Assembly: GCA_018824115.1 (NCBI GenBank)
Contig: JAHJGY010000070.1
Location: 1,632 to 65,631 of the forward strand
Source of the DNA: Patescibacteria group bacterium
GTDB lineage: Bacteria > Patescibacteriota > 4484-211
Direction: 5' to 3'
DNA length: 64,000 nt
The notes under the pieces are model-generated. The model saw only the letters and a list, made by a program, of their open reading frames with translations, had not been told where the DNA came from and ran no database searches. The position numbers were made by a program, and so were the translations under genes. Positions within the stretch are counted from its first letter, which is position 1. Every line of letters starts with the position of its first letter. Positions 2,938 through 50,569 of the stretch are shown here, piece after piece.

Positions 2938-4012
2938 AGCTGATACCCATAAAATAAAAAAGTTAGTTAAGTTAGGTAAACAGAAAGGTTATCTCACAAT
3001 CGAGGATATTCTGGTCATTTTCCCTAAGGCCGAGGAGGATATTGAAGTATTGGATCATTTGTATCAAGTATTGCTGGAGGAAAGTATTGATCTACTGGAT
3101 ACCCAAGGCAAATCTGAGGACGAAGAACTGGAAGAGTCTAAGCTGGTTAAGGATTTAGAAAAGGTGGCTACGGTTTCCGCGCGGGTGAAAACAGATTCTA
3201 TACGTATGTACCTTTCCGAGATTGGTAAAGTGCCTTTATTGGTTAAAGAGGAGGAAGTGGATTTGGCAAAGAGGGTAGAAGGGGGAGAGAAGGCTGCAGT
3301 AGAGAAGTTAATTCGATCAAATCTTCGCCTAGTTGTTTCGTTGGCGAAGAAATATCTGGGTCGAGGGTTAAGTATGCTGGATTTAATCCAAGAGGGAAAT
3401 ATTGGATTAATGAAGGCGGTATATAAATATGATTGGCGACGCGGGTTTAAATTTTCTACCTATGCTACTTGGTGGATTCGTCAGGCAATTACTCGGGCAA
3501 TTGCCGATCAGGCACGGACAATCCGAATTCCTGTCCATATGGTGGAGACGAAAAATAAGTATTTTAGAACCGCACGTCGCTTAGCTCAGGAATTAGGTCG
3601 TGAACCAGATCCAGGAGAAGTTGCCGAAGAAATGGGTATTCCCGAAGAGAAGGCCTATCAGATTATTCGCATTGCTCAAGAGCCATTGTCTCTAGAGAAG
3701 CCGGTGGGAGAAGAAGAGGATTCTAAATTAGGAGATTTTCTGGAAGATAAACTGGTTATGTCGCCTGACGAAGCGGCATCCCAGGAACTATTAAAAGACC
3801 ACCTCGGCCAGGTGTTAGATAGTTTGCCTCCTCGAGAGCGAAAGGTGTTAAGCTTGCGTTTTGGTCTAGAAACTGGAAGACAGAGGACATTAGAGGAAGT
3901 AGGACGTATGTTTGGTGTAACACGAGAAAGGATAAGGCAGATAGAAGCGAAAGCATTGCGTAAACTTCGTCATCCGACGCGGGCGAAGAAGCTAAAGGAT
4001 TACTTGGGTTAG
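2927..4012 (+). CDS. rpoD: RNA polymerase sigma-70 family factor (compact primary-like sigma, lacks region 1.1)
   Basis: Region 2 ([18 protein letters not shown]...[13 protein letters not shown]), region 3 and region 4 (LSLRFGL...TLEEVG...[18 protein letters not shown]) are all recognisable. Confidence 0.9.
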
Positions 4013-9710: not shown

Positions 9711-10367
9711 ATGTTTCTTGTTCAACCTTATGGTTTAATTATTCTCACGGCCGTTGTTCTTGGTTATTCTTTGTTTCGACGCCGTGTTAGTTCTCTTTCT
9801 ATTACTCCTAAACAACAGGAGACGCTGTTGCTGTTTGTTTTAGTATTTGGACTAGTTGGTGCTCGTTTATACCATGTACTTACCGAGTATTATCGCTACC
9901 AAGGTAATTGGATACAAGTTTTGTGGTGGTGGAAAGGAGGGCTAGGTATCTATGGGGCCGTGTTAGGGGCAATTGCAGCCGGAGCTATTTTTTCGCGAAG
10001 AAACCAAATTTCCCTGCTTCTACTTTTAGATGCCGCAGTACCCTGTCTTTTGCTGGGGCAATCGGTAGGCCGTTTGGCGAATGTAATTAATGAGGAGTTA
10101 CTGCCTTTTGCCTGGTACGATGCGCTTTTATGCCTTTTTCTGTCTGCGGGCATTATTCTTTTGGAGGGGTACTTTCGTTTTAGGCTGGGTTCAGGGAAAG
10201 TAACAGCGGGGTATTTGATAGGTTATGGCACTGGTCGATTTTTTCTTGAGATGTTTAGGGTGCCGCGGTTGTGGCTGGGGTTAGTTAGTTTTACTCAGCT
10301 TGTCAGTTTGATGTTTGTTTTGGTTGGGATATATCTTTTTAAACATCTTGACAGAATATTTAATTAG
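9711..10367 (+). CDS. lgt: Prolipoprotein diacylglyceryl transferase
   Basis: Lgt signature G-x-R-x-x-N-x-x-N-x-E (VGRLANVINEEL) and the GGLGIYGAVLGAI segment; polytopic. Confidence 0.8.
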   Translation: MFLVQPYGLIILTAVVLGYSLFRRRVSSLSITPKQQETLLLFVLVFGLVGARLYHVLTEYYRYQGNWIQVLWWWKGGLGIYGAVLGAIAAGAIFSRRNQISLLLLLDAAVPCLLLGQSVGRLANVINEELLPFAWYDALLCLFLSAGIILLEGYFRFRLGSGKVTAGYLIGYGTGRFFLEMFRVPRLWLGLVSFTQLVSLMFVLVGIYLFKHLDRIFN

Positions 10368-10524
10368 CCATATAATGTGCGCGTTATCTTTCAGTATTTA
10401 TCCGCCTCAGTTATTGCTTATCCCTTAACTTAAGCCGTCTGTGTGGGCTGGGTGTGGTTTGCGTTTGATTAGGAGATGTAGTAAGCTCTCTTTGTTAAAC
10501 GTGATGAGTTTTGGAGGTTAGAGT

Positions 10525-10992
10525 ATGACAAAAGACGAAGTAAAAAATCTAGTTACCCCGCAGGGACTAGCAAAACTTAAAGAGGAATACGAGAGATTAA
10601 CGAAAGCTGAGCGGCCGAAGTTGTTAAAAGAAGTGAGCGAGTTGCGGTCGATGGGAGACTTGAAAGAGAATGCGGCTTTTCATTATGCACGTAAACAACA
10701 AGCAATTTTAGATGGTCGGATTCTGGACTTGGAACTGATTATTAGGACGGCAGTAGTAAAGGAGAAAACAGATTCAACTATTGTTCATTTAGGCTCGCAT
10801 GTTACGGTGGAGTTTGAGGATGAGCAGCAAGGGTATATTATTGTTGGTGAAAGTGAGGCAAATTTTTTGGAAGGGAAGATCTCAGCTTCTTCGCCTTTGG
10901 GCAAGATGTTATTTGGCAAGGTGATAGGTGATGAGGTGATCGTTGAGGCTCCTGCAGGGGAGATGAAGTATAAAGTTGTGAAGATAGAATAA
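10525..10992 (+). CDS. greA: Transcription elongation factor GreA (copy 1)
   Basis: Coiled-coil N-terminal domain with acidic tip (GDLKENAAFHYARKQQ) plus a C-terminal FKBP-like domain; 155 aa. Confidence 0.85.
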   Translation: MTKDEVKNLVTPQGLAKLKEEYERLTKAERPKLLKEVSELRSMGDLKENAAFHYARKQQAILDGRILDLELIIRTAVVKEKTDSTIVHLGSHVTVEFEDEQQGYIIVGESEANFLEGKISASSPLGKMLFGKVIGDEVIVEAPAGEMKYKVVKIE

Positions 10993-10993
10993 T

Positions 10994-11449
10994 ATGAAAA
11001 GTCATATATTTACCCCGGAGGGGTATGAACAATTGAAGAAAGAATATCAATCATTGGTTGGTGGACAGCGTCCAGTAGCTTTGGAGGAACTGAAGGAAGC
11101 GCGAGGTATGGGAAGTTTGGAAGATAACTTGCAGTACGAGATTGCTAAAGAGAAACTAGAAATAATTGATGCCAGGATCGTTGAAATTGAGGAGTTGCTA
11201 CGTCAAGGTAATGTTCAGAAGGTGAGGAAGCACGGTACTGTTGATGTGGGGTCTCAGGTGACCGTGGAGATAGAAGGAGGAAGTGAGGTTTTTGTTATTG
11301 TTAATCCTTACGAGATTGATCCATTGACGGGTAAAATTTCTTACGAGTCTCCAGTTGGCAAGGCATTAATGAAGCGCAAACCAGGAGATAAAGTCATGGT
11401 TACTCTGCCTCATAACACGTTAGAATTTGTGATTGTTAAGGTTGACTAA
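10994..11449 (+). CDS. GreA-family transcript cleavage factor (copy 2, tandem paralog)
   Basis: Same architecture (GSLEDNLQYEIAKEKL, acidic tip retained); starts 2 nt after the copy 1 stop. Confidence 0.8.
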   Translation: MKSHIFTPEGYEQLKKEYQSLVGGQRPVALEELKEARGMGSLEDNLQYEIAKEKLEIIDARIVEIEELLRQGNVQKVRKHGTVDVGSQVTVEIEGGSEVFVIVNPYEIDPLTGKISYESPVGKALMKRKPGDKVMVTLPHNTLEFVIVKVD

Positions 11450-22676: not shown

Positions 22677-25646
22677 TTAAATTTGTACCTTATACGCCGG
22701 GCACAATAGTTGATATGAACAGTATTGGCACATTAAACCAATATTGGGTGTAAAGTTGCCTTGTCTTATTTCTTTAACGAGTTCCCCGATTTTCGTTTTG
22801 GTAGTCTGTAGATCATCAGAGTTTCTGGTGGTGGTCAATTTAATGCTTTCTTCGAGAAAAATGAAACTTAGTTTCTGCTTCTCTGGAGGGGTGTTAAGAA
22901 TGTTTGGATCAGCCGCGGCAAGGGAATAGATGCCTAGCTGGAGGTCTTTATCAATTTCTTTTTGTTTTTTTGCTTTTCCCGTTTTGTAGTCGATAATTTC
23001 GATTGTTCCATCTGCTAATTTGTCTACCCGGTCAATCCTGCCAGTGATTTTAATACCACCGATTTTAATTGAAAACGGAAACTCTATCTTATTGACTATT
23101 TGTTTGGGCGAGTAGTGGTTTTGGCAGAAGGTTTTAAGCATCTTTATGCCGGCTTTTTTCTGCCGTGCTTCGTGTTCTTTTGCTTGGTAACCTTCGCTGA
23201 TCCAGTAGGTTTCCAGCAGTTCTTTGAGGGCTTTAAACGCCGAGCTTTGGGAGCTTTTAAAGCTCGACGTTTCTTGCATATGACGCCGATAGAACTCGGC
23301 CAAAGTTCGGTGCATGGATTCCCCAAACGAGAGTGGTGATGTGGGAGGCGTAGGGATTCCGAGTATGTGTTTGTATTTATACTGCTGTGGGCAAACGGAA
23401 TAAGTGTTAATTTGTGAGTAGGATAGTCTGGAGATTCTATGTGTGAGTGGTTTTCCGGCCGGTTCCGCAGCTGGTGTTTCTGGTTGATACCATTTAAACA
23501 GCGAGGTCTGTTGTTGGGTTTTGTTAATGATCCGAAAGGGCTCTAAATTTTCTCCGAGAGTCTCGGTAATAAAAGGGGAGAGTCGTTTGGGACGTTTATT
23601 TTGGTGATAGAATTTAGCTCCACTAAAATATAATTTCTTTTGTGCTCGAGTTATACCGACGTAAAACAAACGACGTTCTTCTGCGATGTGAGGGTTGCTA
23701 CTAGGAAGGGGTTCCTTAATTAGTTGATCGGGGACTGGTATTTGATCTTTGCGTTCACGTGTGGGGAATCGGTCGGTAACGAGGTTAACCATAAAAACGA
23801 CTGGGAATTCTAAGCCCTTTGCCGAGTGGAAGGTAAGAATATTGACGGCGTTGTTATCGCGCCAGTCAATTTCGCTGGCAAGCGGGGATTCGCCCTGGTC
23901 GATAATAAAGCTGAGATATTCAACAAAATGATAGACGTTACTTTCTGGATTTTGTATTTCAAACTTCTTAGCGACATCAAAGAATTTAGAAATGTTTTGG
24001 ATTTCTCGCTGATGCTGTGGTGATTGTGGGTCTTGGTAAGAAACTAATAGGCCGGTGTCCTTCAGGAAGTAATAAAGGATTTGCCCGGGTAGTTCTTGGG
24101 GCACGAGTTTTAAATGCCTGTGAATCATTGAGATGAACTTGCTGATTTTCTGATAAGTGTCTTGTTTTAGATTGGCGATTTCTCTGATGTTTTCCAGTGT
24201 TTCAAATAGGCTAAGATTTTTCTGTTTTGCGTGGCTGATCATGAATGCGATGTCCCGGGTATTTACATTAAAGTGTGTTTTGGTCAACACTCTGTACATG
24301 GCGATGTCGTCTTTAATGTTAGACAGGATTGTTAGGTAGGCAATTAGATCTTTAATTTCCGGTTGGTGAAAAAGCTGGCCCGGGCCAAGAAATTGATAAG
24401 GCAGGCCAGCCTGACTTAATGCTTGAAGGAAGGGGAAAGCATGATTATTGGCTCGGACCAATATTGCAAAGTCTTGATAGCGCAGGCCGTTATTATTCTT
24501 AGTTAATCTCTGGATTTCGCCGATCACGCTTTCTGCTTCTTCCTCTACTTTCTCTTCCCAAATGAGGGTGATGTCGGAACCGTCTCGTTTTGGGACCGCC
24601 CGGAGTTTCTTGTCGATTCTTTCTTGGGTTTCTAATCGATCTGGGTTGTTGTGTTGGATGAAGTGGTAAGCTCGATCTAGTATTATTTGCGGTGACCGAT
24701 AGTTGCGGATCAAGCTAACCAGGCTTGAATTTGGGAAGTGTTTTTGGAAGCTGAGGACATTATAGATTGCCGCTCCCCGCCAGCGGTAAATGCTTTGATC
24801 GTCGTCGCAAACTGCAGTGATATTCTGATCGTCTCCTGCTAGCAGTACGGCGATCTCGTTTTGGATATAGTTGGTATCCTGGAATTCGTCAACAAGGACG
24901 TGTTTAAACTGTTTCTGATATTTGACTAAGATGTTCGAGCGAGTCTTAAAGAGTTTTAGAGTGTAATAGAGGAGATCGGCGAAGTCCATTACACTGTGTT
25001 GGATTTTTAATTCTTGGTATTTCTTATACGCTGTTGCCAGTTCCTCTAACCTCTCAATTTGCAGCCTTTCCTCATTATTCTGGCTACCGGTTTCTGGTTC
25101 TGCGTTCTGGGCTACAGTTTTCCGGTTCTTGAGGCTCCTGATGTATTTCGAGTATTCCTCCGGTGTGATATTTTCGTTTCTCAGTCGACTAAAATGGGTG
25201 ATTAATCCCGAGATGAATTTGGCGGGGTTACCGAGGGGTCGATAGTATTGTAGGTTGAACTCGAATATATGTTTTTTTATAAAGAGATAGTTTTCGGCCT
25301 GGCTTAATATTCGGAAAACGGGGTCGAGGCCGATATGGATAGCTTCTTGGCGCAAGACTCGTTCACAGAAGGAATGGAAAGTAGAAATCCAGGTTTGTAC
25401 ATAACCAATGGGCAAGGCAATGTCTACTCTTTCTTCCATCTCCTGCGCTGCCTTTTCTGTAAAAGTTAAGGCGAGTATTTCTGAGGGTTTGGCACTTTTT
25501 TGTTCGATGAGCCATTTGATGCGTTCGGTGATTACGGTGGTTTTCCCGGTTCCTGCGCCAGCAATGATGAGGAGAGGGCGCTGAGAATGAGTGATGGCAG
25601 CATGCTGTTCGGGGTTGAGTTTAAACTTAGCTTTATCGTCGTGCAT
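22677..25646 (-). CDS. UvrD/PcrA-like helicase fused to a C-terminal PD-(D/E)XK nuclease with a Cys cluster (AddA/Cas4-like helicase-nuclease)
   Basis: Walker A GAGTGKTT; UvrD motifs (VDEFQDTN, helicase C-terminus). C-terminal GRIDRVD...DYKTG and QYCSYQLLCP Fe-S-type cysteines. Confidence 0.85.
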   Translation of the reverse strand: MHDDKAKFKLNPEQHAAITHSQRPLLIIAGAGTGKTTVITERIKWLIEQKSAKPSEILALTFTEKAAQEMEERVDIALPIGYVQTWISTFHSFCERVLRQEAIHIGLDPVFRILSQAENYLFIKKHIFEFNLQYYRPLGNPAKFISGLITHFSRLRNENITPEEYSKYIRSLKNRKTVAQNAEPETGSQNNEERLQIERLEELATAYKKYQELKIQHSVMDFADLLYYTLKLFKTRSNILVKYQKQFKHVLVDEFQDTNYIQNEIAVLLAGDDQNITAVCDDDQSIYRWRGAAIYNVLSFQKHFPNSSLVSLIRNYRSPQIILDRAYHFIQHNNPDRLETQERIDKKLRAVPKRDGSDITLIWEEKVEEEAESVIGEIQRLTKNNNGLRYQDFAILVRANNHAFPFLQALSQAGLPYQFLGPGQLFHQPEIKDLIAYLTILSNIKDDIAMYRVLTKTHFNVNTRDIAFMISHAKQKNLSLFETLENIREIANLKQDTYQKISKFISMIHRHLKLVPQELPGQILYYFLKDTGLLVSYQDPQSPQHQREIQNISKFFDVAKKFEIQNPESNVYHFVEYLSFIIDQGESPLASEIDWRDNNAVNILTFHSAKGLEFPVVFMVNLVTDRFPTRERKDQIPVPDQLIKEPLPSSNPHIAEERRLFYVGITRAQKKLYFSGAKFYHQNKRPKRLSPFITETLGENLEPFRIINKTQQQTSLFKWYQPETPAAEPAGKPLTHRISRLSYSQINTYSVCPQQYKYKHILGIPTPPTSPLSFGESMHRTLAEFYRRHMQETSSFKSSQSSAFKALKELLETYWISEGYQAKEHEARQKKAGIKMLKTFCQNHYSPKQIVNKIEFPFSIKIGGIKITGRIDRVDKLADGTIEIIDYKTGKAKKQKEIDKDLQLGIYSLAAADPNILNTPPEKQKLSFIFLEESIKLTTTRNSDDLQTTKTKIGELVKEIRQGNFTPNIGLMCQYCSYQLLCPAYKVQI

Positions 25647-37707: not shown

Positions 37708-38196
37708 ATGTCAGTGCACTTCTACCCAAAACTTTTCGACTCCAAACAATTCGAAGATCAAAAAGAGCGTAAAGACAATTTATATGAGCTGGTTATGGAA
37801 TGTACCGACGAGAATTTTGATTTTAATATTGATGACTCGTTCACCGCATTAGCCTACTATCCATCAGCAGACGTACCAGCAAATTTTGCTACTGTTTTGT
37901 CTGAGCAATTAGAACTAGATCTCATTGATCTTGATGATGATTCCCAGCTTGAAGAAGTAAGTAAAACGATCGAAATACTTAACAAAATCGGGTCTGTGGA
38001 AAAGACAAACTTAGATTGGGAAACTTATGAACCATATATTGGATTTATAACACTAGAAGAAAGCATTACCCTCAAGGGTTTTCTCGAGAAATATAATTTT
38101 GATGATGACGTAATTAACAATTATAAACATTTTATGTTGGAGATTTTACGTAAAGCTATTGAAAAGAATAAGGGGATTATTATTCTAGCATTTTAA
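37708..38196 (+). CDS. Hypothetical highly acidic protein (162 aa, D/E-rich)
   Basis: ORF; about a quarter of residues are Asp/Glu; no recognisable family. Confidence 0.5.
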   Translation: MSVHFYPKLFDSKQFEDQKERKDNLYELVMECTDENFDFNIDDSFTALAYYPSADVPANFATVLSEQLELDLIDLDDDSQLEEVSKTIEILNKIGSVEKTNLDWETYEPYIGFITLEESITLKGFLEKYNFDDDVINNYKHFMLEILRKAIEKNKGIIILAF

Positions 38197-38352
38197 TCCA
38201 GCTTCCTATACTTTTTACTTTGTAGAGTACACCCTATCTAAGTTTTCTAAGGACGGATGTTCTAAAAACCCATTAATGAAAGGACGATCCTTCCGTCCTC
38301 CGTTCCCCCATTCAACGCGGCGAGCCCAGGATTTGCCGTCACATGGCCCTTG

Positions 38353-40611
38353 TCAAACACTAGGTGTTTGGTTAACAAATTCTTTGAGGTATCTACCTGT
38401 ATGGGAGTTGTTACTATTACAAATATCCTCTGGTGTTCCTTGCGCAACAATTCGACCACCTTTATCTCCACCCCCTGGCCCTAAGTCAATAATCCAGTCC
38501 GCTTGCCGGATTACGTCTAAGTTGTGTTCAACAATAAGTACTGTGTTGCCATTATCCACTAACTTATTTAATAGCCTCATTAATTTATCGAGATCTGCGA
38601 AGTGGAGACCCGAAGTTGGTTCATCTAGAATATAAAACTCATTTTCCTTCTGAAGCCTACTTGCAAGTTTAAGTCTTTGAGACTCGCCACCCGAAAGGGT
38701 GTCTAAGGTTTGTCCCATTTCAATATAATCGAGCCCAACATTAATTAATAAGTCCATTGCGTCTATAATTTTTTTGTCTTCAAAAAATCCCTTTACTTCC
38801 CGTGCCGTCATTTCTAAGATTTGTGCGATGTTTCTACCCTTATGTCTGTATCTGAGAACTTTTTCTTTATATCTAGTGCCGCCACACTTGTCACAGCGTA
38901 TCTTCACATTACCTAAAAAGTTCATATCCATGTTAATGTAGCCAACACCCTTGCAATTCGCACATCCACCCTTTGAGTTAAAACTAAATAAACCTACGCT
39001 CATATTCGTACTTTTGGCAAATATTTTTCTTATTTCATCAAATGCACCAATATATGTGGCAATGCAACCCCTTTTGGTGTTGCCAATTTGCTTTTGATCC
39101 ATAGCCGTTATCCTTTCACCGTGTTGAGCAATAATTTCTTCAACCAAAGAGCTTTTACCCGACCCTGATACTCCAGTTAGTGCTACCAATACTCCGCAGG
39201 GGATTTTCACATTCAGATTTTTCAGGTTGTGCTTTGTTGCGTTGACAATTTTTAAATGATCTATGGGTGTTCTAACTTTATCTTTTAAATCCTTTCTTTC
39301 ACTATTTACTAAATACTTTGCTGTTACGGATTTAGGGTTGTTGACAATCTCATTTAGTACTCCTTGAGCAATAACCCTTCCCCCCTCCTTGCCGCCCCCG
39401 GGTCCAATTTCAACAATGTGATCCGAGCTTTTTATTATTGCCTCATCATGTTCAACCACCAATATCGTGTTGCTGTTCTTGCATAAACTTTTTAAATTAT
39501 TAACCACCCCAGCGACATCTTTGGGGTGAAGGCCGGCCGTAGGTTCATCCAACACATAAATAGTTTCAATTAAATCACAACCTAACTGTCTTGCCATTTT
39601 TACTCGCTGTGCTTCTCCTCCCGATAAAGTATCTGCCGATCGGTTAAGAGATAAATATCCGACACCTGCGTTAACAAGATGTTCTAATTGCTCTGTTAAA
39701 CGAGGCTTTATTACCTCGGCATGGGGATGACCTACATTCTTTATAAATTCTAAGCAGTCAGTTAATGGCATATTTGCAACCTCACCAATACTTTTGCCAT
39801 TTACCCTTACCGATAATGCTTGGGCGTTGAGCTTTCCACCCTTACAAGCGGGGCAGTCAATAAAGTCAAAATATTTTAAATCACTTTTGGAGGGGCCCCG
39901 ATGCACCTTAGTGTTTCTGTGCATTATCCGATAAACAATTCCCTGGTATGTCCACTTATTTACTATAAATGCGCCCTGGCTATCCAACAAAACCGGTTTG
40001 GCATTTAACAACTTATCAAGTTCTTCTTGGCAATAATCTTTTATCTTTTTATCCATGTCAAAGTAACCACTTGATCCGATGATGCTCCACTGTCGTCCGC
40101 CTACGTACCACTCACCAGGTTTCAATGCTCCTTCATTTAAACTCTTATTTACATCAAGTATCTTATCTAGATTTACTTCAACAGATCTTCCTAATCCCTT
40201 ACATTGTGGACATGCTCCAAATGGATGATTAAAGGAGAAGTAGGTTGAATCCATCGTAGGTAAACCCACCCTAGAGAAGAGTAGCCTCAAATAGTTATAA
40301 CTTTCGGTCAATGTCCCAACTGTTGATCGGGGATTACTGCGAACTCTGGCTTGGCTAATTTTTACAGTTGATGAAATTCCAGATATTGAATCGATATCTG
40401 GCTTGTTATTTTTGCTTAGATATCTTCTGGCATAAGTACTTAATGACTCGAAATACTGCCTTTCGCTTTCACGGGCAATAATGTCGAAGGCTATTGTTGA
40501 CTTGCCGGAACCCGACACGCCCACAAAACAGACAACCCGGTTTCTAGGGATAACGACATCAATGTTTTTCAGGTTGTTCTCTCTGGCCCCTTTAATATTA
40601 ATAGTGTTCAT
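38353..40611 (-). CDS. UvrA-like tandem ABC ATPase lacking the UvrB-binding domain (UvrA class II/III; DrrC/UvrA2-like)
   Basis: Two Walker A motifs (GVSGSGKST, GVSGSGKSS), two LSGGE signatures, and Zn modules (FSFNHPFGACPQCKGLG, CANCKGVG, CDKCGG). The ~140-aa segment found in canonical UvrA between RLLF(A/S)RVG and the FSFN zinc module is absent; 752 aa. Confidence 0.85.
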   Translation of the reverse strand: MNTINIKGARENNLKNIDVVIPRNRVVCFVGVSGSGKSTIAFDIIARESERQYFESLSTYARRYLSKNNKPDIDSISGISSTVKISQARVRSNPRSTVGTLTESYNYLRLLFSRVGLPTMDSTYFSFNHPFGACPQCKGLGRSVEVNLDKILDVNKSLNEGALKPGEWYVGGRQWSIIGSSGYFDMDKKIKDYCQEELDKLLNAKPVLLDSQGAFIVNKWTYQGIVYRIMHRNTKVHRGPSKSDLKYFDFIDCPACKGGKLNAQALSVRVNGKSIGEVANMPLTDCLEFIKNVGHPHAEVIKPRLTEQLEHLVNAGVGYLSLNRSADTLSGGEAQRVKMARQLGCDLIETIYVLDEPTAGLHPKDVAGVVNNLKSLCKNSNTILVVEHDEAIIKSSDHIVEIGPGGGKEGGRVIAQGVLNEIVNNPKSVTAKYLVNSERKDLKDKVRTPIDHLKIVNATKHNLKNLNVKIPCGVLVALTGVSGSGKSSLVEEIIAQHGERITAMDQKQIGNTKRGCIATYIGAFDEIRKIFAKSTNMSVGLFSFNSKGGCANCKGVGYINMDMNFLGNVKIRCDKCGGTRYKEKVLRYRHKGRNIAQILEMTAREVKGFFEDKKIIDAMDLLINVGLDYIEMGQTLDTLSGGESQRLKLASRLQKENEFYILDEPTSGLHFADLDKLMRLLNKLVDNGNTVLIVEHNLDVIRQADWIIDLGPGGGDKGGRIVAQGTPEDICNSNNSHTGRYLKEFVNQTPSV

Positions 40612-40675
40612 AAGATTGACATTTCTCTACCACGGGACTATAATAAGCTATTACGTTACGTCATAGTCAAGTATC
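40612..40675. promoter_or_regulatory. Overlapping divergent promoters: plus-strand TTGACA-17-TATAAT for the MerR gene; minus-strand TTGACT-19-TATTAT (MerR-type long spacer) for the UvrA-like gene, with an imperfect dyad CTATTACGT-T-ACGTCATAG in the spacer
   Basis: Coordinates read directly: TTGACA 40616-40621, TATAAT 40639-40644; minus-strand -10 at 40640-40645, -35 at 40665-40670, spacer 40646-40664 (19 nt). Confidence 0.5.
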
Positions 40676-41473
40676 ATGAATAATTACTTAACAGCGGGTG
40701 AATTAGCCAAGCTTGCAAGTACCACTAAGCGAACTATTCTCTTTTATGATGAGAAAAACATTCTTGAACCCGTGGAAGTTAATAATAAGGGTTATAGATA
40801 TTATTTAGAAGATCAGGTGCTTGACTACCAAAAAATACTTCTCCTTACTACCCTAGGTGTTTCATTGGATGAAATTAGGCTTCATCTCAAAAATAAGGGT
40901 AATCTGACTCAACTCTTTAACGAAAAAAAATCTCAAATAAGAAATCAAATAAAGAAGCTTGAATTTAATTTAGATAGTCTCGAGAAATTCTCAAACAACA
41001 TAAATAACAATGGGACAATGGTCAACCCGGAAATAAAGACAATTGAACCATTTGATGTTTATTACATTGAAAAAATCGGACCCTACGTTAAAATCGCGGA
41101 GTACTGCAAAGAGTTTATCGAGATGTTTGATAATAGGGGGAAAGAGTTTACAACTCTAGCCATCTTTGAGAACCCTACCTATCAACCCAAGAAAAGCAAG
41201 ATTAAAATTGGAGCGCTTGTAAAAAAGGACATGAAGATAGGTGAGAAACATAAAGATACTGTTAAACGCATGACTTTTAGCCCCGGAAAAGTTATAACCC
41301 ACACCTACAATGGTTCAGGAAGTTTACTTTCCTTATTCTGGAAAGAACTTGAAAAATACTGCATGATAAAAAAAATAAAAATTAGAAAAGATGTTCCTGA
41401 TTTTGAAATATACCGCAAAGTCAGCGAAGATCCAGTGGAGCAGTTTTTTGAAATTTATCTTCCTATCCGTTAA
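40676..41473 (+). CDS. MerR-family transcriptional regulator with C-terminal GyrI-like effector-binding domain (BmrR-like)
   Basis: N-terminal MerR HTH (LTAGELAKLASTTKRTILFYDEKNIL), coiled-coil linker, and a C-terminal GyrI-like domain ending ...PDFEIYRKV...EIYLPI. Confidence 0.8.
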   Translation: MNNYLTAGELAKLASTTKRTILFYDEKNILEPVEVNNKGYRYYLEDQVLDYQKILLLTTLGVSLDEIRLHLKNKGNLTQLFNEKKSQIRNQIKKLEFNLDSLEKFSNNINNNGTMVNPEIKTIEPFDVYYIEKIGPYVKIAEYCKEFIEMFDNRGKEFTTLAIFENPTYQPKKSKIKIGALVKKDMKIGEKHKDTVKRMTFSPGKVITHTYNGSGSLLSLFWKELEKYCMIKKIKIRKDVPDFEIYRKVSEDPVEQFFEIYLPIR

Positions 41474-41634
41474 TTTATTTTTATGGCCCGCCCGCCTTCA
41501 TGTAAATCCGAGACTTGCCAGTTCCCAAAGTCGTCTTGCGAACTGGCCAAGTAAGATTGGCTTCCTTATTGCACCAATTTAAATTAGTGAAAATAGGACT
41601 TTCCAGGTCATCGATGCTAAAGTATACTGTTGTT

Positions 41635-47546: not shown

Positions 47547-48773
47547 TTAATAAACTTCCGTTGATCCCAGAGCTGCACTTACTAACGAAACAAATGCCGG
47601 CTCATTGATTTTACTAATTTCCCCACTTATGTTTGGTATTTCAGAAAGTTCAAGGAACCTTGGTTTTGGGAATGTGCTAAAGGATAAGTTTTTAGTCCAT
47701 GGATAAGCAATAAACGCCGATTTTAAATTTGGGATTTGTAATCCACCGCCATAGATAAAAAAGTTTTCCGGAAAACTTGAGGAGTAATTCATTTGTTTTA
47801 AACACGCGGCAATACCAGTCATTAAGATATCCAACCACGGTTGTGTTAAGCGATCCACTCCTTGTTGTTTCTCATCATTCAGTTTTCTTTGACTCGCGGC
47901 AATCTTAAGATTGTCAGCATTATCGAAATTGAGGTCAAGGTGTCTCATTAGATTCCAGGTGAAATGGTAGCCTCCCCAGTTAAAAGTGTAGCCGCCAAGG
48001 ATTTCACCTTCACTGAATAACGCTACTTCGGTTAGTTTGCCACCGATATCTATTAAGATCCCTCTTGCAAATTCATCTTTCAGGAAGTTTAGTGGGGCAA
48101 AAATAGGGTCTCTGATTTGTGATATTCGTAAACCAAGGGTGTCACCCAGTTGAGATAGGGTTTTATGTGTTTCTTGAAGACAGAAAGTCTCCTTTAATGA
48201 GATTTTGAGTTCTTCACCTCCGAAATCAATAGGCGAGGAAAGTTTTTTTCCATCTAGTCGGAATTCTATTGCCTCGGTACTGAGGCGTTGAAGGCTTTCT
48301 GGTGGGGCCCGGAAGAGCTGAGAAGCTTTAATGAGTGAACGCTCGGCTGTACGCTCTTCGATTTTCCGGAAAATTTTGTTGAGTTCGGACTCTGTCACAG
48401 GGGTTTCTACTTCGGCGCGTTGCAGTTTAATTTTTGTGTTTACGGTTTTAGTGAAACCCCCGGCTAGAAGAGTCGTTTGTTGTGGCATAATACTAGCTTC
48501 CAAATTTGCCTTTTCGATCGCCAGGGAACAAGCCTCCAAAACGGCATCAGGTTGTTGGATTTTGGAACCAAGGAAGCTAGCTTGCCCGTGCCTTTGTTGG
48601 CTGAGTGCGAGAACTTCTATCTTGGGGGTGTTACTGAAGGTAGGGTCGCCTGGTTCGGGGTCATTTAAAAGACGGAAGATGCCAGCCTTGACGGTGGTTG
48701 TCCCTAAGTCTAGCATCATGAAGGGCTCTGGTTGGCGTGGTTTAAATAATTTAGAGAGAATAGGTAGCTTCAT
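47547..48773 (-). CDS. Actin-like ATPase of the FtsA/PilM family
   Basis: MLDLGTTTVKAGIF (phosphate-1), IDIGGKLTEVALF (phosphate-2), IYGGGLQIPNL (adenosine motif). Confidence 0.6.
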   Translation of the reverse strand: MKLPILSKLFKPRQPEPFMMLDLGTTTVKAGIFRLLNDPEPGDPTFSNTPKIEVLALSQQRHGQASFLGSKIQQPDAVLEACSLAIEKANLEASIMPQQTTLLAGGFTKTVNTKIKLQRAEVETPVTESELNKIFRKIEERTAERSLIKASQLFRAPPESLQRLSTEAIEFRLDGKKLSSPIDFGGEELKISLKETFCLQETHKTLSQLGDTLGLRISQIRDPIFAPLNFLKDEFARGILIDIGGKLTEVALFSEGEILGGYTFNWGGYHFTWNLMRHLDLNFDNADNLKIAASQRKLNDEKQQGVDRLTQPWLDILMTGIAACLKQMNYSSSFPENFFIYGGGLQIPNLKSAFIAYPWTKNLSFSTFPKPRFLELSEIPNISGEISKINEPAFVSLVSAALGSTEVY

Positions 48774-50569
48774 TTTTTCTCCAGTGTTGCCTTTATCCTT
48801 CTTATTCCTTTCCCAACACTTTCTTCTTTAATAATTTTAAAATACCCTAATTCTGATGTATTAGCAACATGGGGTCCGCCACAGAGCTCTTTAGAAAAGT
48901 TATTAATTTTGTACATCGTCACCTGGTCAACTTCTTTGTATTTGTCTCTAAATAAAGCAATAGCTCCTTGCTTAACTGCCTCGTGGAATGTAGTTTCCAC
49001 TTTTGTTACCGAGAGGCCTTTTTGGATTTGCTGGTTAACAATTTTTTCTACTTTACGAATTTCTTTCGGGTCAAGTTTGCGATCAAAAGTAAAGTCGAAT
49101 CTCAATCGCTCTGGTACTAGGCTCTGACCAGCTTGTTTTACTTGACTACCGAGTACTTCTGTTAAAGCCTGGTGCATTAGGTGAGTTGCGGTATGCAGGG
49201 GTGCGATTTCTTCATTAGCGTATTCTTGCACTTTGCCGAATTTGCCTTCGGCTCCCTTGCGTGATAGGTCCTGGTGTTTTTTGTAGGCAGCTTGATAAGA
49301 TTCTTTGTCAATAATAATACCGTGGTTTTCAGCAATTTCTTTCTGTGTTTCTAGCGGCACGCCATAGGTGGCTTCGATGTCAAAGGCTATTTCACCGGGG
49401 AAGACCGCCGCTTTTCCTTTGCCCTGCCCAACGATAGTGGCTAAGCTTGCTTCGAGAACACCTAACCCTTTTTTAAGGGTCTTAAGGAAGTTTTCATGCT
49501 CGTTTTGTAGTACTGCAATAATATCTTGATCCTTGATTTCCGGGTAGAAAGACCCGTAGATGTTGGTGATTGATTGATGCAGTCGTTCGTAGAGATCTTC
49601 TAGCTTAATCTTTAAAAAGATCTGATGGGTAATTGCCCTGCGGATAAGTCGCCGTAAAATGTAACCTTCTCGTTTGTTCGATGGTACAACTCCGTCACCG
49701 ATGAGGAAAAAAGCGGCCCGTAAATGATCGGCGACGATTCTTACCGAACGGGTTTGCGCTGTGGTTAAAGAATCGATATTAAGCGTGGATGTGATTTCCG
49801 TGATTAAGGGTGAGAAGAGATCGGTCTCGTAGTTACTCTCCTTACTTTGTAAAACTGCGGCAAAACGTTCTAAGCCGGCCCCAGTGTCAACACTGAGAAA
49901 GGGAAGCTCCTCGAATTCGGTTTCGCTTTTACGATTATATTGCATAAAAACACCTGCGTTCCAAATTTCGTAGAAGCGGCCACATTCACAATTCGGATTG
50001 CATTCTATTCCGCAGGAATATTTTACTCCTCGATCGTACAAGACTTCGGTGCAGGGTCCACAGGGGCCAGTTGGCCCAGAGACCCAGAGATTTTCGGAGG
50101 CGGGGAGTTTAAGGATATGTTCGTCAGGTATTCCGATGGACTTCCAGTGGCTGATGGTTTCGGTATCGGCCGGAATGTAGTCATCGCCGGCAAAAACAGT
50201 GGCGTATAGTTTGTCTGGTTCGAGGTTAAACCCTTCCTGCGAAGTGAGCAGTTCCCAGGCGAGTTCAACCGCCATCTTTTTACCGTAATCTCCAATCGAC
50301 CAACTGCCAAACATTTCAAAAAAGGTATGGTGGTGAGGATCACCAACGCATTCAATGTCCTCTGTACGGACACACTTTTGAATGTTGGTTAATCGGGGGT
50401 GCGGCGGTTTTTCTTCGCCGGTGAAGTAGGGTTTAATTGGCGCCATGCCGGAGTTAACTAGGAGTAGCGTTGGGTCGTTTTTGGCTACCAAATTGGCCGA
50501 ACCAATATTTTGGTGATTATGCTTTTCGAAAAATTCAATAAAGCGTTTGCGGATTTCTGTGTGTGTCAT
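48770..50569 (-). CDS. alaS: Alanyl-tRNA synthetase (compact, 599 aa; catalytic and editing cores present, C-Ala domain absent)
   Basis: N-terminus FFEKHNH...NDPTLLLVNSGM...HHTFFEM; editing-domain HTATHLMHQAL and CGGPH zinc motifs. Confidence 0.9.
   Translation of the reverse strand: MTHTEIRKRFIEFFEKHNHQNIGSANLVAKNDPTLLLVNSGMAPIKPYFTGEEKPPHPRLTNIQKCVRTEDIECVGDPHHHTFFEMFGSWSIGDYGKKMAVELAWELLTSQEGFNLEPDKLYATVFAGDDYIPADTETISHWKSIGIPDEHILKLPASENLWVSGPTGPCGPCTEVLYDRGVKYSCGIECNPNCECGRFYEIWNAGVFMQYNRKSETEFEELPFLSVDTGAGLERFAAVLQSKESNYETDLFSPLITEITSTLNIDSLTTAQTRSVRIVADHLRAAFFLIGDGVVPSNKREGYILRRLIRRAITHQIFLKIKLEDLYERLHQSITNIYGSFYPEIKDQDIIAVLQNEHENFLKTLKKGLGVLEASLATIVGQGKGKAAVFPGEIAFDIEATYGVPLETQKEIAENHGIIIDKESYQAAYKKHQDLSRKGAEGKFGKVQEYANEEIAPLHTATHLMHQALTEVLGSQVKQAGQSLVPERLRFDFTFDRKLDPKEIRKVEKIVNQQIQKGLSVTKVETTFHEAVKQGAIALFRDKYKEVDQVTMYKINNFSKELCGGPHVANTSELGYFKIIKEESVGKGIRRIKATLEKK

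Follow-up and report, generated by a model that had tools for sequence, protein, structure and literature searches.

In mer operons, the regulator gene is transcribed away from its target and is autorepressed, and the regulated promoter has a 19-bp spacer whose dyad lies slightly toward the -35 element. The two promoters of the mer operator-promoter are divergent and partially overlap (PMC11049809). MerR-type activated promoters have a suboptimal spacer of 19–20 bp that separates -35 from -10, and EcmrR and BmrR introduce a kink at the A:T in the centre of a pseudo-palindrome, which leaves the spacer of 19 bp under-twisted to mimic a 17-bp promoter (PMC8113463). In class IIa UvrA proteins, in turn, neither the first zinc finger nor the UvrB-binding domain is present; Ecm16 gives resistance to echinomycin without the other excision repair proteins, and it is unclear what class II UvrA proteins do in organisms that are not antibiotic producers (PMC9328131). 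Here, we analyzed 64,000 nucleotides of DNA from a Patescibacteria group bacterium (NCBI GenBank assembly GCA_018824115.1, contig JAHJGY010000070.1, positions 1,632 to 65,631 of the forward strand), hereafter the window, in which a 64-bp intergenic gap (40612–40675) separates the ATG start codons of two genes, a class II UvrA-like gene (minus strand) and a MerR-family regulator gene (plus strand). This region is very likely the control region of a two-gene MerR-type switch in which the regulator, upon binding a ligand, would activate the UvrA-like gene.

Direct reading of the gap located two opposed promoters exactly where a previous, sequence-only reading had proposed them. On the plus strand, a -35 element TTGACA (40616–40621), a 17-nt spacer and a -10 element TATAAT (40639–40644) precede the regulator gene; together, the hexamers match the consensus at 12 of 12 positions and rank first in a consensus promoter scan. 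On the minus strand, the UvrA-like gene is preceded by a -35 element TTGACT (40670–40665), a 19-nt spacer (40664–40646) and a -10 element TATTAT (40645–40640), a promoter that the scan could not list because it excludes 19-nt spacers. The -10 hexamers of the two strands share 5 bp (40640–40644), which agrees with the mer-like overlap described in that reading, and transcripts are predicted to start near 40651 for the regulator and near 40633 for the UvrA-like gene. The 19-nt spacer holds a candidate operator, the dyad CTATTACGT-T-ACGTCATAG (40648–40666; centre at 40657), in which eight of nine positions are complementary. A repeat search with a 6-nt seed missed this dyad, because its longest exact arms measure only 4 + 4 nt; we checked it by eye and by script. 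Its centre falls at position 8 of the 19-bp spacer, displaced by about 2 bp toward the -35 element, and its core (40649–40665) corresponds, with two mismatches, to the family palindrome TATAACGTnACGTTATA.

The decisive support is comparative, in that the whole block is kept at fixed spacing in related loci. A contig search with the single regulator protein returned no loci, and an alignment of 38 regulator homologues was needed to retrieve 30 loci from species-representative genomes; where taxa are named, these belong to the Gottesman-, Ames-, Woese-, Roizman-, Beckwith-, Shapiro- and Dojkabacteria. The regulators of the 30 loci are 52–70% identical to the window protein, and the UvrA-like gene (58–69% identity) lies divergently upstream of the regulator in 27 of 29 complete loci, a recurrent pairing that sustains the link between regulator and UvrA-like gene drawn earlier at the sequence level. 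When the loci are anchored on the palindrome, the block TATAATAAnnTATaACGTnACGTtATAGTCAA, which runs from the -10 hexamers to the -35 element, is nearly invariant in all 30 and the flanking bases drift. The 17-bp palindrome TATAACGTnACGTTATA is present as a single copy per locus (approximately 8 kb retrieved), perfect in nine loci and with at most three mismatches in 30 of 30, and 29 of the 30 copies have A or T at the centre. In one locus (L005), the palindrome carries a symmetric double change (TATTACGTAACGTAATA), as expected of a site bound by a dimer. The minus-strand -35 element reads TTGAC[TA] in every locus, and a -10 element stands at exactly 19 bp from it in every locus (TAT[TAG]AT in 28 and TATAC[TC] in two). 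Both the suboptimal MerR-type spacer and the imperfect dyad proposed as a plausible operator in the sequence-only reading are hence retained across the family. The distance from the plus-strand -10 element to the regulator ATG is variable (27–36 nt), and that from the minus-strand -10 element to the UvrA-like ATG is bimodal (6–33 nt, with outliers at 80–184 nt).

The same spacing recurs in a second sample that was anchored on the operator rather than on the protein. A scan of metagenome contigs with TATWACGTWACGTYATWGTCAA, which comprises the operator and the -35 element and carries no information on the -10 element, gave at least 119 loci. Among the matches listed, TAnnnT is found exactly 19 bp from the -35 element in 101 of 106 non-redundant loci, and 36 loci are of the divergent type (divergons). 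We also compared both strands of the 64-kb window with 100 first-order Markov simulations. Promoters with 12 of 12 consensus matches and a 17-nt spacer were observed twice against 0.01 expected, and TTGAC[AT]-N19-TATnAT was observed once, as the UvrA-like promoter, against 0.08 expected. That the three features share one site is far above chance.

Together, these observations fit a switch of known type. The 19-bp spacer, the palindrome inside it and the MerR gene at the locus are those of MerR-type promoters, and the presence of another promoter on the opposite strand, overlapping the first and serving the regulator gene, is a trait of mer. We propose that a consensus, sigma-70-type promoter with a 17-bp spacer drives the MerR/GyrI-like regulator gene, that a suboptimal, sigma-70-type promoter with a 19-bp spacer drives the class II UvrA-like gene, and that RNA polymerase would occupy only one of these overlapping promoters at a time. 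A regulator dimer would bind the palindrome TATAACGTnACGTTATA that fills the 19-bp spacer. Because the dyad would lie at about -3 to +16 of the regulator transcript, the bound regulator is predicted to block its own promoter (negative autoregulation). In the ligand-free state the 19-bp promoter would be little used, and the ligand-bound dimer would activate it by distorting the DNA. By analogy with Ecm16 and DrrC, the UvrA-like protein may then clear intercalated drug from DNA with no need for the other components of nucleotide excision repair. For the ligand, the likeliest candidate is a DNA-binding toxin of planar or cationic character, although this is a guess made by analogy: planar or cationic drugs are bound by the relatives of the sensor fold, and intercalators are countered by class IIa UvrA proteins, so that a DNA-binding toxin is the most economical choice.

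The regulator itself (40676–41473, plus strand; 265 amino acids) is identified by its open reading frame (ORF) and by Pfam matches to MerR_1 (3.7e-12), MerR (7.9e-09) and, in the C-terminal part, the GyrI-like domain (2.9e-09), which Pfam reports in place of a TipAS domain. Among proteins of solved structure, EcmrR and BmrR are nearest to it by sequence, with TipAN and MtaN next. An AlphaFold2 model built with the 38 homologues (mean predicted local distance difference test score, pLDDT, of 90) comprises a winged helix-turn-helix, a long helix at residues 77–112 and a beta-rich C-terminal domain. In a Foldseek comparison of this model with the Protein Data Bank (PDB), the top matches were BrlR, BmrR, EcmrR and the AlbA-like STM3175, with E = 1e-14 for the first three, and at the domain level the modelled sensor resembles proteins that bind rhodamine, TPP, closthioamide or an analogue of pyocyanin. 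The architecture of N-terminal domain, dimerisation helix and GyrI-like domain matches the BmrR/EcmrR type. Homologues number more than 300 and their named sources are Patescibacteria, and the regulator and the UvrA-like protein each have a 100% identical NCBI entry attributed to a Patescibacteria bacterium; plasmid relatives amounted to only two weak N-terminal matches. In the recognition helix, an R-T pair is common, by eye, to the window regulator (TTKRTILFYD) and TipAS-type regulators (VSIRTLQYYD), and the corresponding positions read K-A and K-T in BmrR and EcmrR (also by eye).

The proposed target (38353–40611, minus strand; 752 amino acids), identified by its ORF and profile matches, encodes a class II UvrA-like ATPase that matches UvrA profiles at 1e-233 or better. 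The profile match skips from residue ~118 to position 262 (TIGR00630) or 279 (2r6f), so that the UvrB-binding region is missing; some 145–160 amino acids of canonical UvrA are gone after residue 118, and the protein has 752 amino acids compared to about 940 for the canonical form. It combines the UvrA fold and two ABC ATPase modules with the lack of the UvrB-binding domain that marks class IIa, and the first zinc-finger half is also missing (by eye). Its solved relatives include Ecm16 (7sh1) and Deinococcus radiodurans UvrA2 (2vf7), with E values from 1e-157 to 1e-170, and NCBI sometimes names its homologues 'daunorubicin resistance protein DrrC'. Of the four largest other ORFs in the window, the three apart from 48770–50569 were compared, and none of them is a canonical UvrA.

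The operator-anchored sample places this operator in a known class. At least 55 loci have a distant MerR homologue on the opposite side instead, where it comes immediately downstream of the 19-bp promoter, often with a GGAGG ribosome-binding site. Four of the five tested regulators in this position contain a TipAS domain, indicating that these are autoregulated genes of the TipA/Mta class. These TipAS-type loci (within L031–L149, e.g. L036 7363–7428, L049, L074 and L132) come from varied metagenomes, including human-gut, fermentation and sediment samples where named, and some of the regulator genes precede ABC-exporter-like ORFs (by eye). Promoter probes have been printed for tipA (TTGCACCTCACGTCACGTGAGGAGGC), mta (TTGACCCTAACGTTGCGTGATTGTTT) and skgA (TTGACCCTCACGCCACGTCAGACCTG) (PMC7762955), and the minus strand of the window at the operator reads TTGACTATGACGTAACGTAATAGCT. 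A core ACG(T/C)-n-(A/G)CGT begins 4 nt past the -35 element in all three probes and in the window; in the tipA probe and the window it is ACGTnACGT. The register of the dyad in the window is likewise that seen in the probes for tipA, mta and skgA (PMC7762955). From the shared core and register, the operator belongs to the TipA class despite the BmrR-like sensor. The window system as a whole is not TipA-class: its regulator has no TipAS domain and is encoded on the strand opposite the 19-bp promoter, so that self-transcription of the TipA type is not seen, and what it uses is that class of operator.

The divergons differ from the other operator-bearing loci on the plus strand. Among the matches listed, a plus-strand TAnnnT overlaps the minus-strand -10 element in 28 of 31 divergons, compared to 11 of 47 TipAS-type and 6 of 26 unclassified loci, so that this second -10 element is specific to the layout that needs rightward transcription of the regulator. 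A plus-strand -35 element with at least five of six matches to TTGACA is present in 31 of 45 non-redundant divergons. Only three of these 31 also carry a TGn extended -10 element, compared to 10 of the 14 divergons that lack the -35 element, an association that gives a Fisher value of 6e-5, which is not corrected for phylogeny. The plus-strand -35 element is dispensable, and a TGn extended -10 element is usually present where it is absent. A regulator promoter running through TATAGT in the right half-site, which would yield a leaderless regulator transcript, was considered and rejected by eye, the distance to the ATG ranging from ~4 to ≥12 nt with no -35 element or TGn.

On the minus strand of the 45 divergons, the -10 element and the UvrA-like ATG are always at least 6 nt apart. 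The ATG follows 6–10 nt past this element in 15 loci and 23–33 nt past it in most of the others, the window included. Such distances would be expected of a transcription start some 7 nt beyond the minus-strand -10 element, and in loci with the 6–10 nt distance a leaderless or near-leaderless UvrA-like mRNA is predicted. Ten short-gap divergons (L006, L011, L012, L013, L017, L020, L023, L025, L028 and L029, upstream of the regulator at around 3950–3980) have a regulator promoter without a -35 element, mostly with a TGn extended -10 element instead. Four further loci (L001, L005, L021 and L027) show a strong GGAGG before the UvrA-like ATG, which adjoins or overlaps the plus-strand -35 element on the opposite strand.

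Among the alternatives to ligand-dependent activation, the one that survives best, although we consider it unlikely, is that the regulator acts as an autorepressor only and that low, constitutive transcription from the 19-bp or another promoter supplies the UvrA-like gene product. The operator is indeed downstream of the plus-strand -10 element, a classical repressor position, and the minus strand offers a second promoter match, ATGACG-16-TATAGT (40664–40637), with 9 of 12 consensus positions. We rejected this match as the minus-strand promoter, since its -10 element (40642–40637) lies partly in non-conserved sequence. Autorepression alone, moreover, gives no reason for the invariant 19-bp spacing seen in all 30 protein-anchored loci and in 101 of 106 loci among the matches listed, and the full-length structural relatives of the regulator are all ligand-responsive activators.

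Less probable still, and in our judgment quite improbable, is that the palindrome is bound by another MerR protein encoded elsewhere, for example one of the TipAS type, with the adjacent GyrI-type regulator serving a different target. This explanation draws on the many contigs in which the same operator-promoter drives TipAS-type MerR genes, and on a DNA-binding domain in the window regulator that is not specially TipA-like overall. It is opposed by the position of the operator, which lies immediately upstream of the GyrI-type regulator gene in every one of the 30 loci selected by protein, and by its copy number: the palindrome is single-copy in each ~8-kb locus, and the 64-kb window contains no other close copy of TATAACGTnACGTTATA, the next best having four mismatches. 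Furthermore, only the two genes recur together.

We assign a very low probability to the conserved block acting as RNA, namely as a hairpin in the 5' leader of the regulator mRNA. The palindrome would fall within this leader if transcription starts near 40651, as inferred above. However, no Rfam family matches at E ≤ 1, and it is base identity rather than pairing that is conserved, beyond the symmetry expected of a dimer site. The distance of the motif is fixed relative to both promoter elements (-35 and -10), not to the start codon, and in TipAS-type loci the motif is upstream of the start site and thus untranscribed. Finally, there is next to no likelihood that the hexamers and dyad are chance matches without a regulatory role in AT-rich intergenic DNA, for although the local G+C content is low (35–38%) and promoter-like matches in a 5-kb region are no commoner than in shuffles (14 found versus 11.9 expected), 12/12 promoters are expected at 0.01 per window and the block is kept across loci whose proteins are 52–70% identical while neighbouring bases are not, so that a chance origin is effectively refuted by the conservation data.

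Several observations nonetheless weigh against a ligand-activated switch as we have drawn it. The dyad by itself is weak evidence, since many such dyads are expected by chance: the Markov comparison of the window gave 15 observed 9-1-9 dyads with at most one mismatch against 7.6 expected. The window dyad departs from TATAACGTnACGTTATA at position 4 in both half-sites, a position that varies across the family. The hexamers match a sigma-70-type consensus, and promoter use in Patescibacteria is uncharacterised; a clear Shine-Dalgarno sequence is absent for both window genes (by eye, 40612–40675). With respect to the regulator, a comparison of the C-terminal domain sequence with the PDB yielded no alignable solved relative for a comparison of ligand pockets. 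The DNA-binding domain is overall no nearer to TipAN and MtaN than to BmrR and EcmrR, and as it is not specially TipA-like, the sharing of the operator is explained only by the R-T motif noted by eye. Lastly, two loci (L003 and L015) carry a different gene beside the operator. In L003 (2617–3986), the 19-bp promoter faces an SDR-like ORF (by eye), which is followed by an 83-residue UvrA-like remnant; in L015 (2956–3989), the nearest minus-strand ORF, about 115 nt away, is CDF-transporter-like (by eye). On balance, and as judged from sequence and its conservation, we regard the window locus as a genuine MerR-type switch that is ordinary in its mechanism and unusual in the gene it targets.

The boundaries of the two-gene module were examined by comparing flanking genes. 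Only the regulator and the UvrA-like gene recur in at least 5 of the 30 loci (4-kb flanks), and the genes that flank the pair in the window have no homologue within 4 kb of it in the 29 related loci. The G+C content is 35–38% over 38000–41500, compared to 42–50% in the adjoining few kb on each side. A terminator-like hairpin (41545–41562, plus strand), 72 nt past the regulator stop codon and weak, being a match from a consensus scan only, suggests that the regulator is monocistronic, and on the far side of the UvrA-like gene the ORF runs convergently to it. The lack of shared neighbours, the drop in G+C content, the hairpin and the convergent ORF together point to a self-contained cassette, which is probably mobile. 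Eight of the loci (L001, L003, L007, L012, L022, L024, L026 and L028) are labelled 'uncultured Gammaproteobacteria' or 'Bathyarchaeia archaeon'; this may reflect either mislabelling or a spread of the cassette to organisms outside Patescibacteria.

Elsewhere in the window, the second and only other 12/12 promoter is TTGACA-17-TATAAT at 10348–10376. It precedes, by ~150 nt, a tandem pair of paralogous ORFs with about 150 amino acids each (10525–10992 and 10994–11449), which are GreA-like by eye and are followed by a 494-residue ORF that resembles lysyl-tRNA synthetase, again by eye. The window also encodes a 989-residue UvrD/PcrA-like helicase (22677–25646, minus strand), the C-terminal part of which matches AddB-/Cas4-type nuclease models (NCBIfam).

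The promoter mechanism proposed here is the known MerR one and teaches nothing new about transcription; the value of the locus is in the regulatory link, in which, across dozens of reduced genomes, a conserved switch would put a class II UvrA under the control of a small-molecule sensor. Conserved wiring to a sensor argues that the role of the UvrA-like protein is inducible chemical defence and not general repair. We tentatively extend this to a 'genotoxin alarm', a possibility that we would not yet call probable: widespread in horizontally mobile form among Patescibacteria, mainly Microgenomates, a chimeric MerR protein combining TipA-type operator specificity with a BmrR-type sensor would detect DNA-intercalating or other DNA-binding natural products of neighbours or hosts and induce a UvrA paralogue that, independently of UvrB, frees DNA of the drug, with a leaderless UvrA-like transcript in a third of lineages. 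A limited literature search found no paper tying a MerR regulator to class II UvrA, UvrA2, Ecm16 or DrrC. If true, the genotoxin alarm would mark the first description of a class II UvrA under MerR-type control and would offer a tractable route to the physiological inducer and function of a poorly understood UvrA class. The regulator, a 31-bp operator-promoter and a reporter provide a simple handle for finding the inducer. One operator type is, moreover, common to MerR regulators with TipAS and with GyrI-like sensors, and this is apparently a clean example of sensor-domain swapping on a conserved pair of DNA-binding domain and operator.

Comparison with the described systems shows which parts of the switch are shared and which are not. 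In layout, the locus resembles merR-merT of Tn501 and Tn21, with divergent overlapping promoters, a 19-bp spacer and a dyad displaced toward the -35 element. It differs from them in its sensor, which is GyrI-like in place of a metal-binding cysteine site, in its unrelated operator sequence, and in its target, a UvrA-like ATPase instead of a metal detoxification operon. In operator, the closest systems are TipAL/ptipA, Mta and SkgA, which share with the window a -35 element, 3 nt and ACGTnACGT within a palindrome (probes TTGCACCTCACGTCACGTGAGG, TTGACCCTAACGTTGCGTGA and TTGACCCTCACGCCACGTCAG; PMC7762955), and the exact operator type of the window drives TipAS-domain regulators in other contigs. 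Unlike in the TipA class, the window regulator lacks TipAS and would be made from a second, overlapping promoter, and the target is a separate gene. In domain architecture and fold, the regulator is closest to BmrR, EcmrR and BrlR, although identity to them is only ~20% and the operator sequence differs. EcmrR and BmrR activate promoters with 19-bp spacers and unpair a central A:T of a pseudo-palindrome (PMC8113463), and in 29 of 30 loci of the window family the palindrome is centred on A or T; the known targets of BmrR, EcmrR and BrlR are efflux pumps, whereas the one proposed for the window is a UvrA paralogue. In target, finally, the locus resembles Ecm16, DrrC and D. radiodurans UvrA2, which, like the window protein, lack the UvrB-binding domain and the first zinc-finger half (the latter by eye). 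Ecm16 and DrrC are encoded in the antibiotic biosynthetic clusters of producers, whereas the window gene is part of a two-gene cassette in the small genomes of Patescibacteria.

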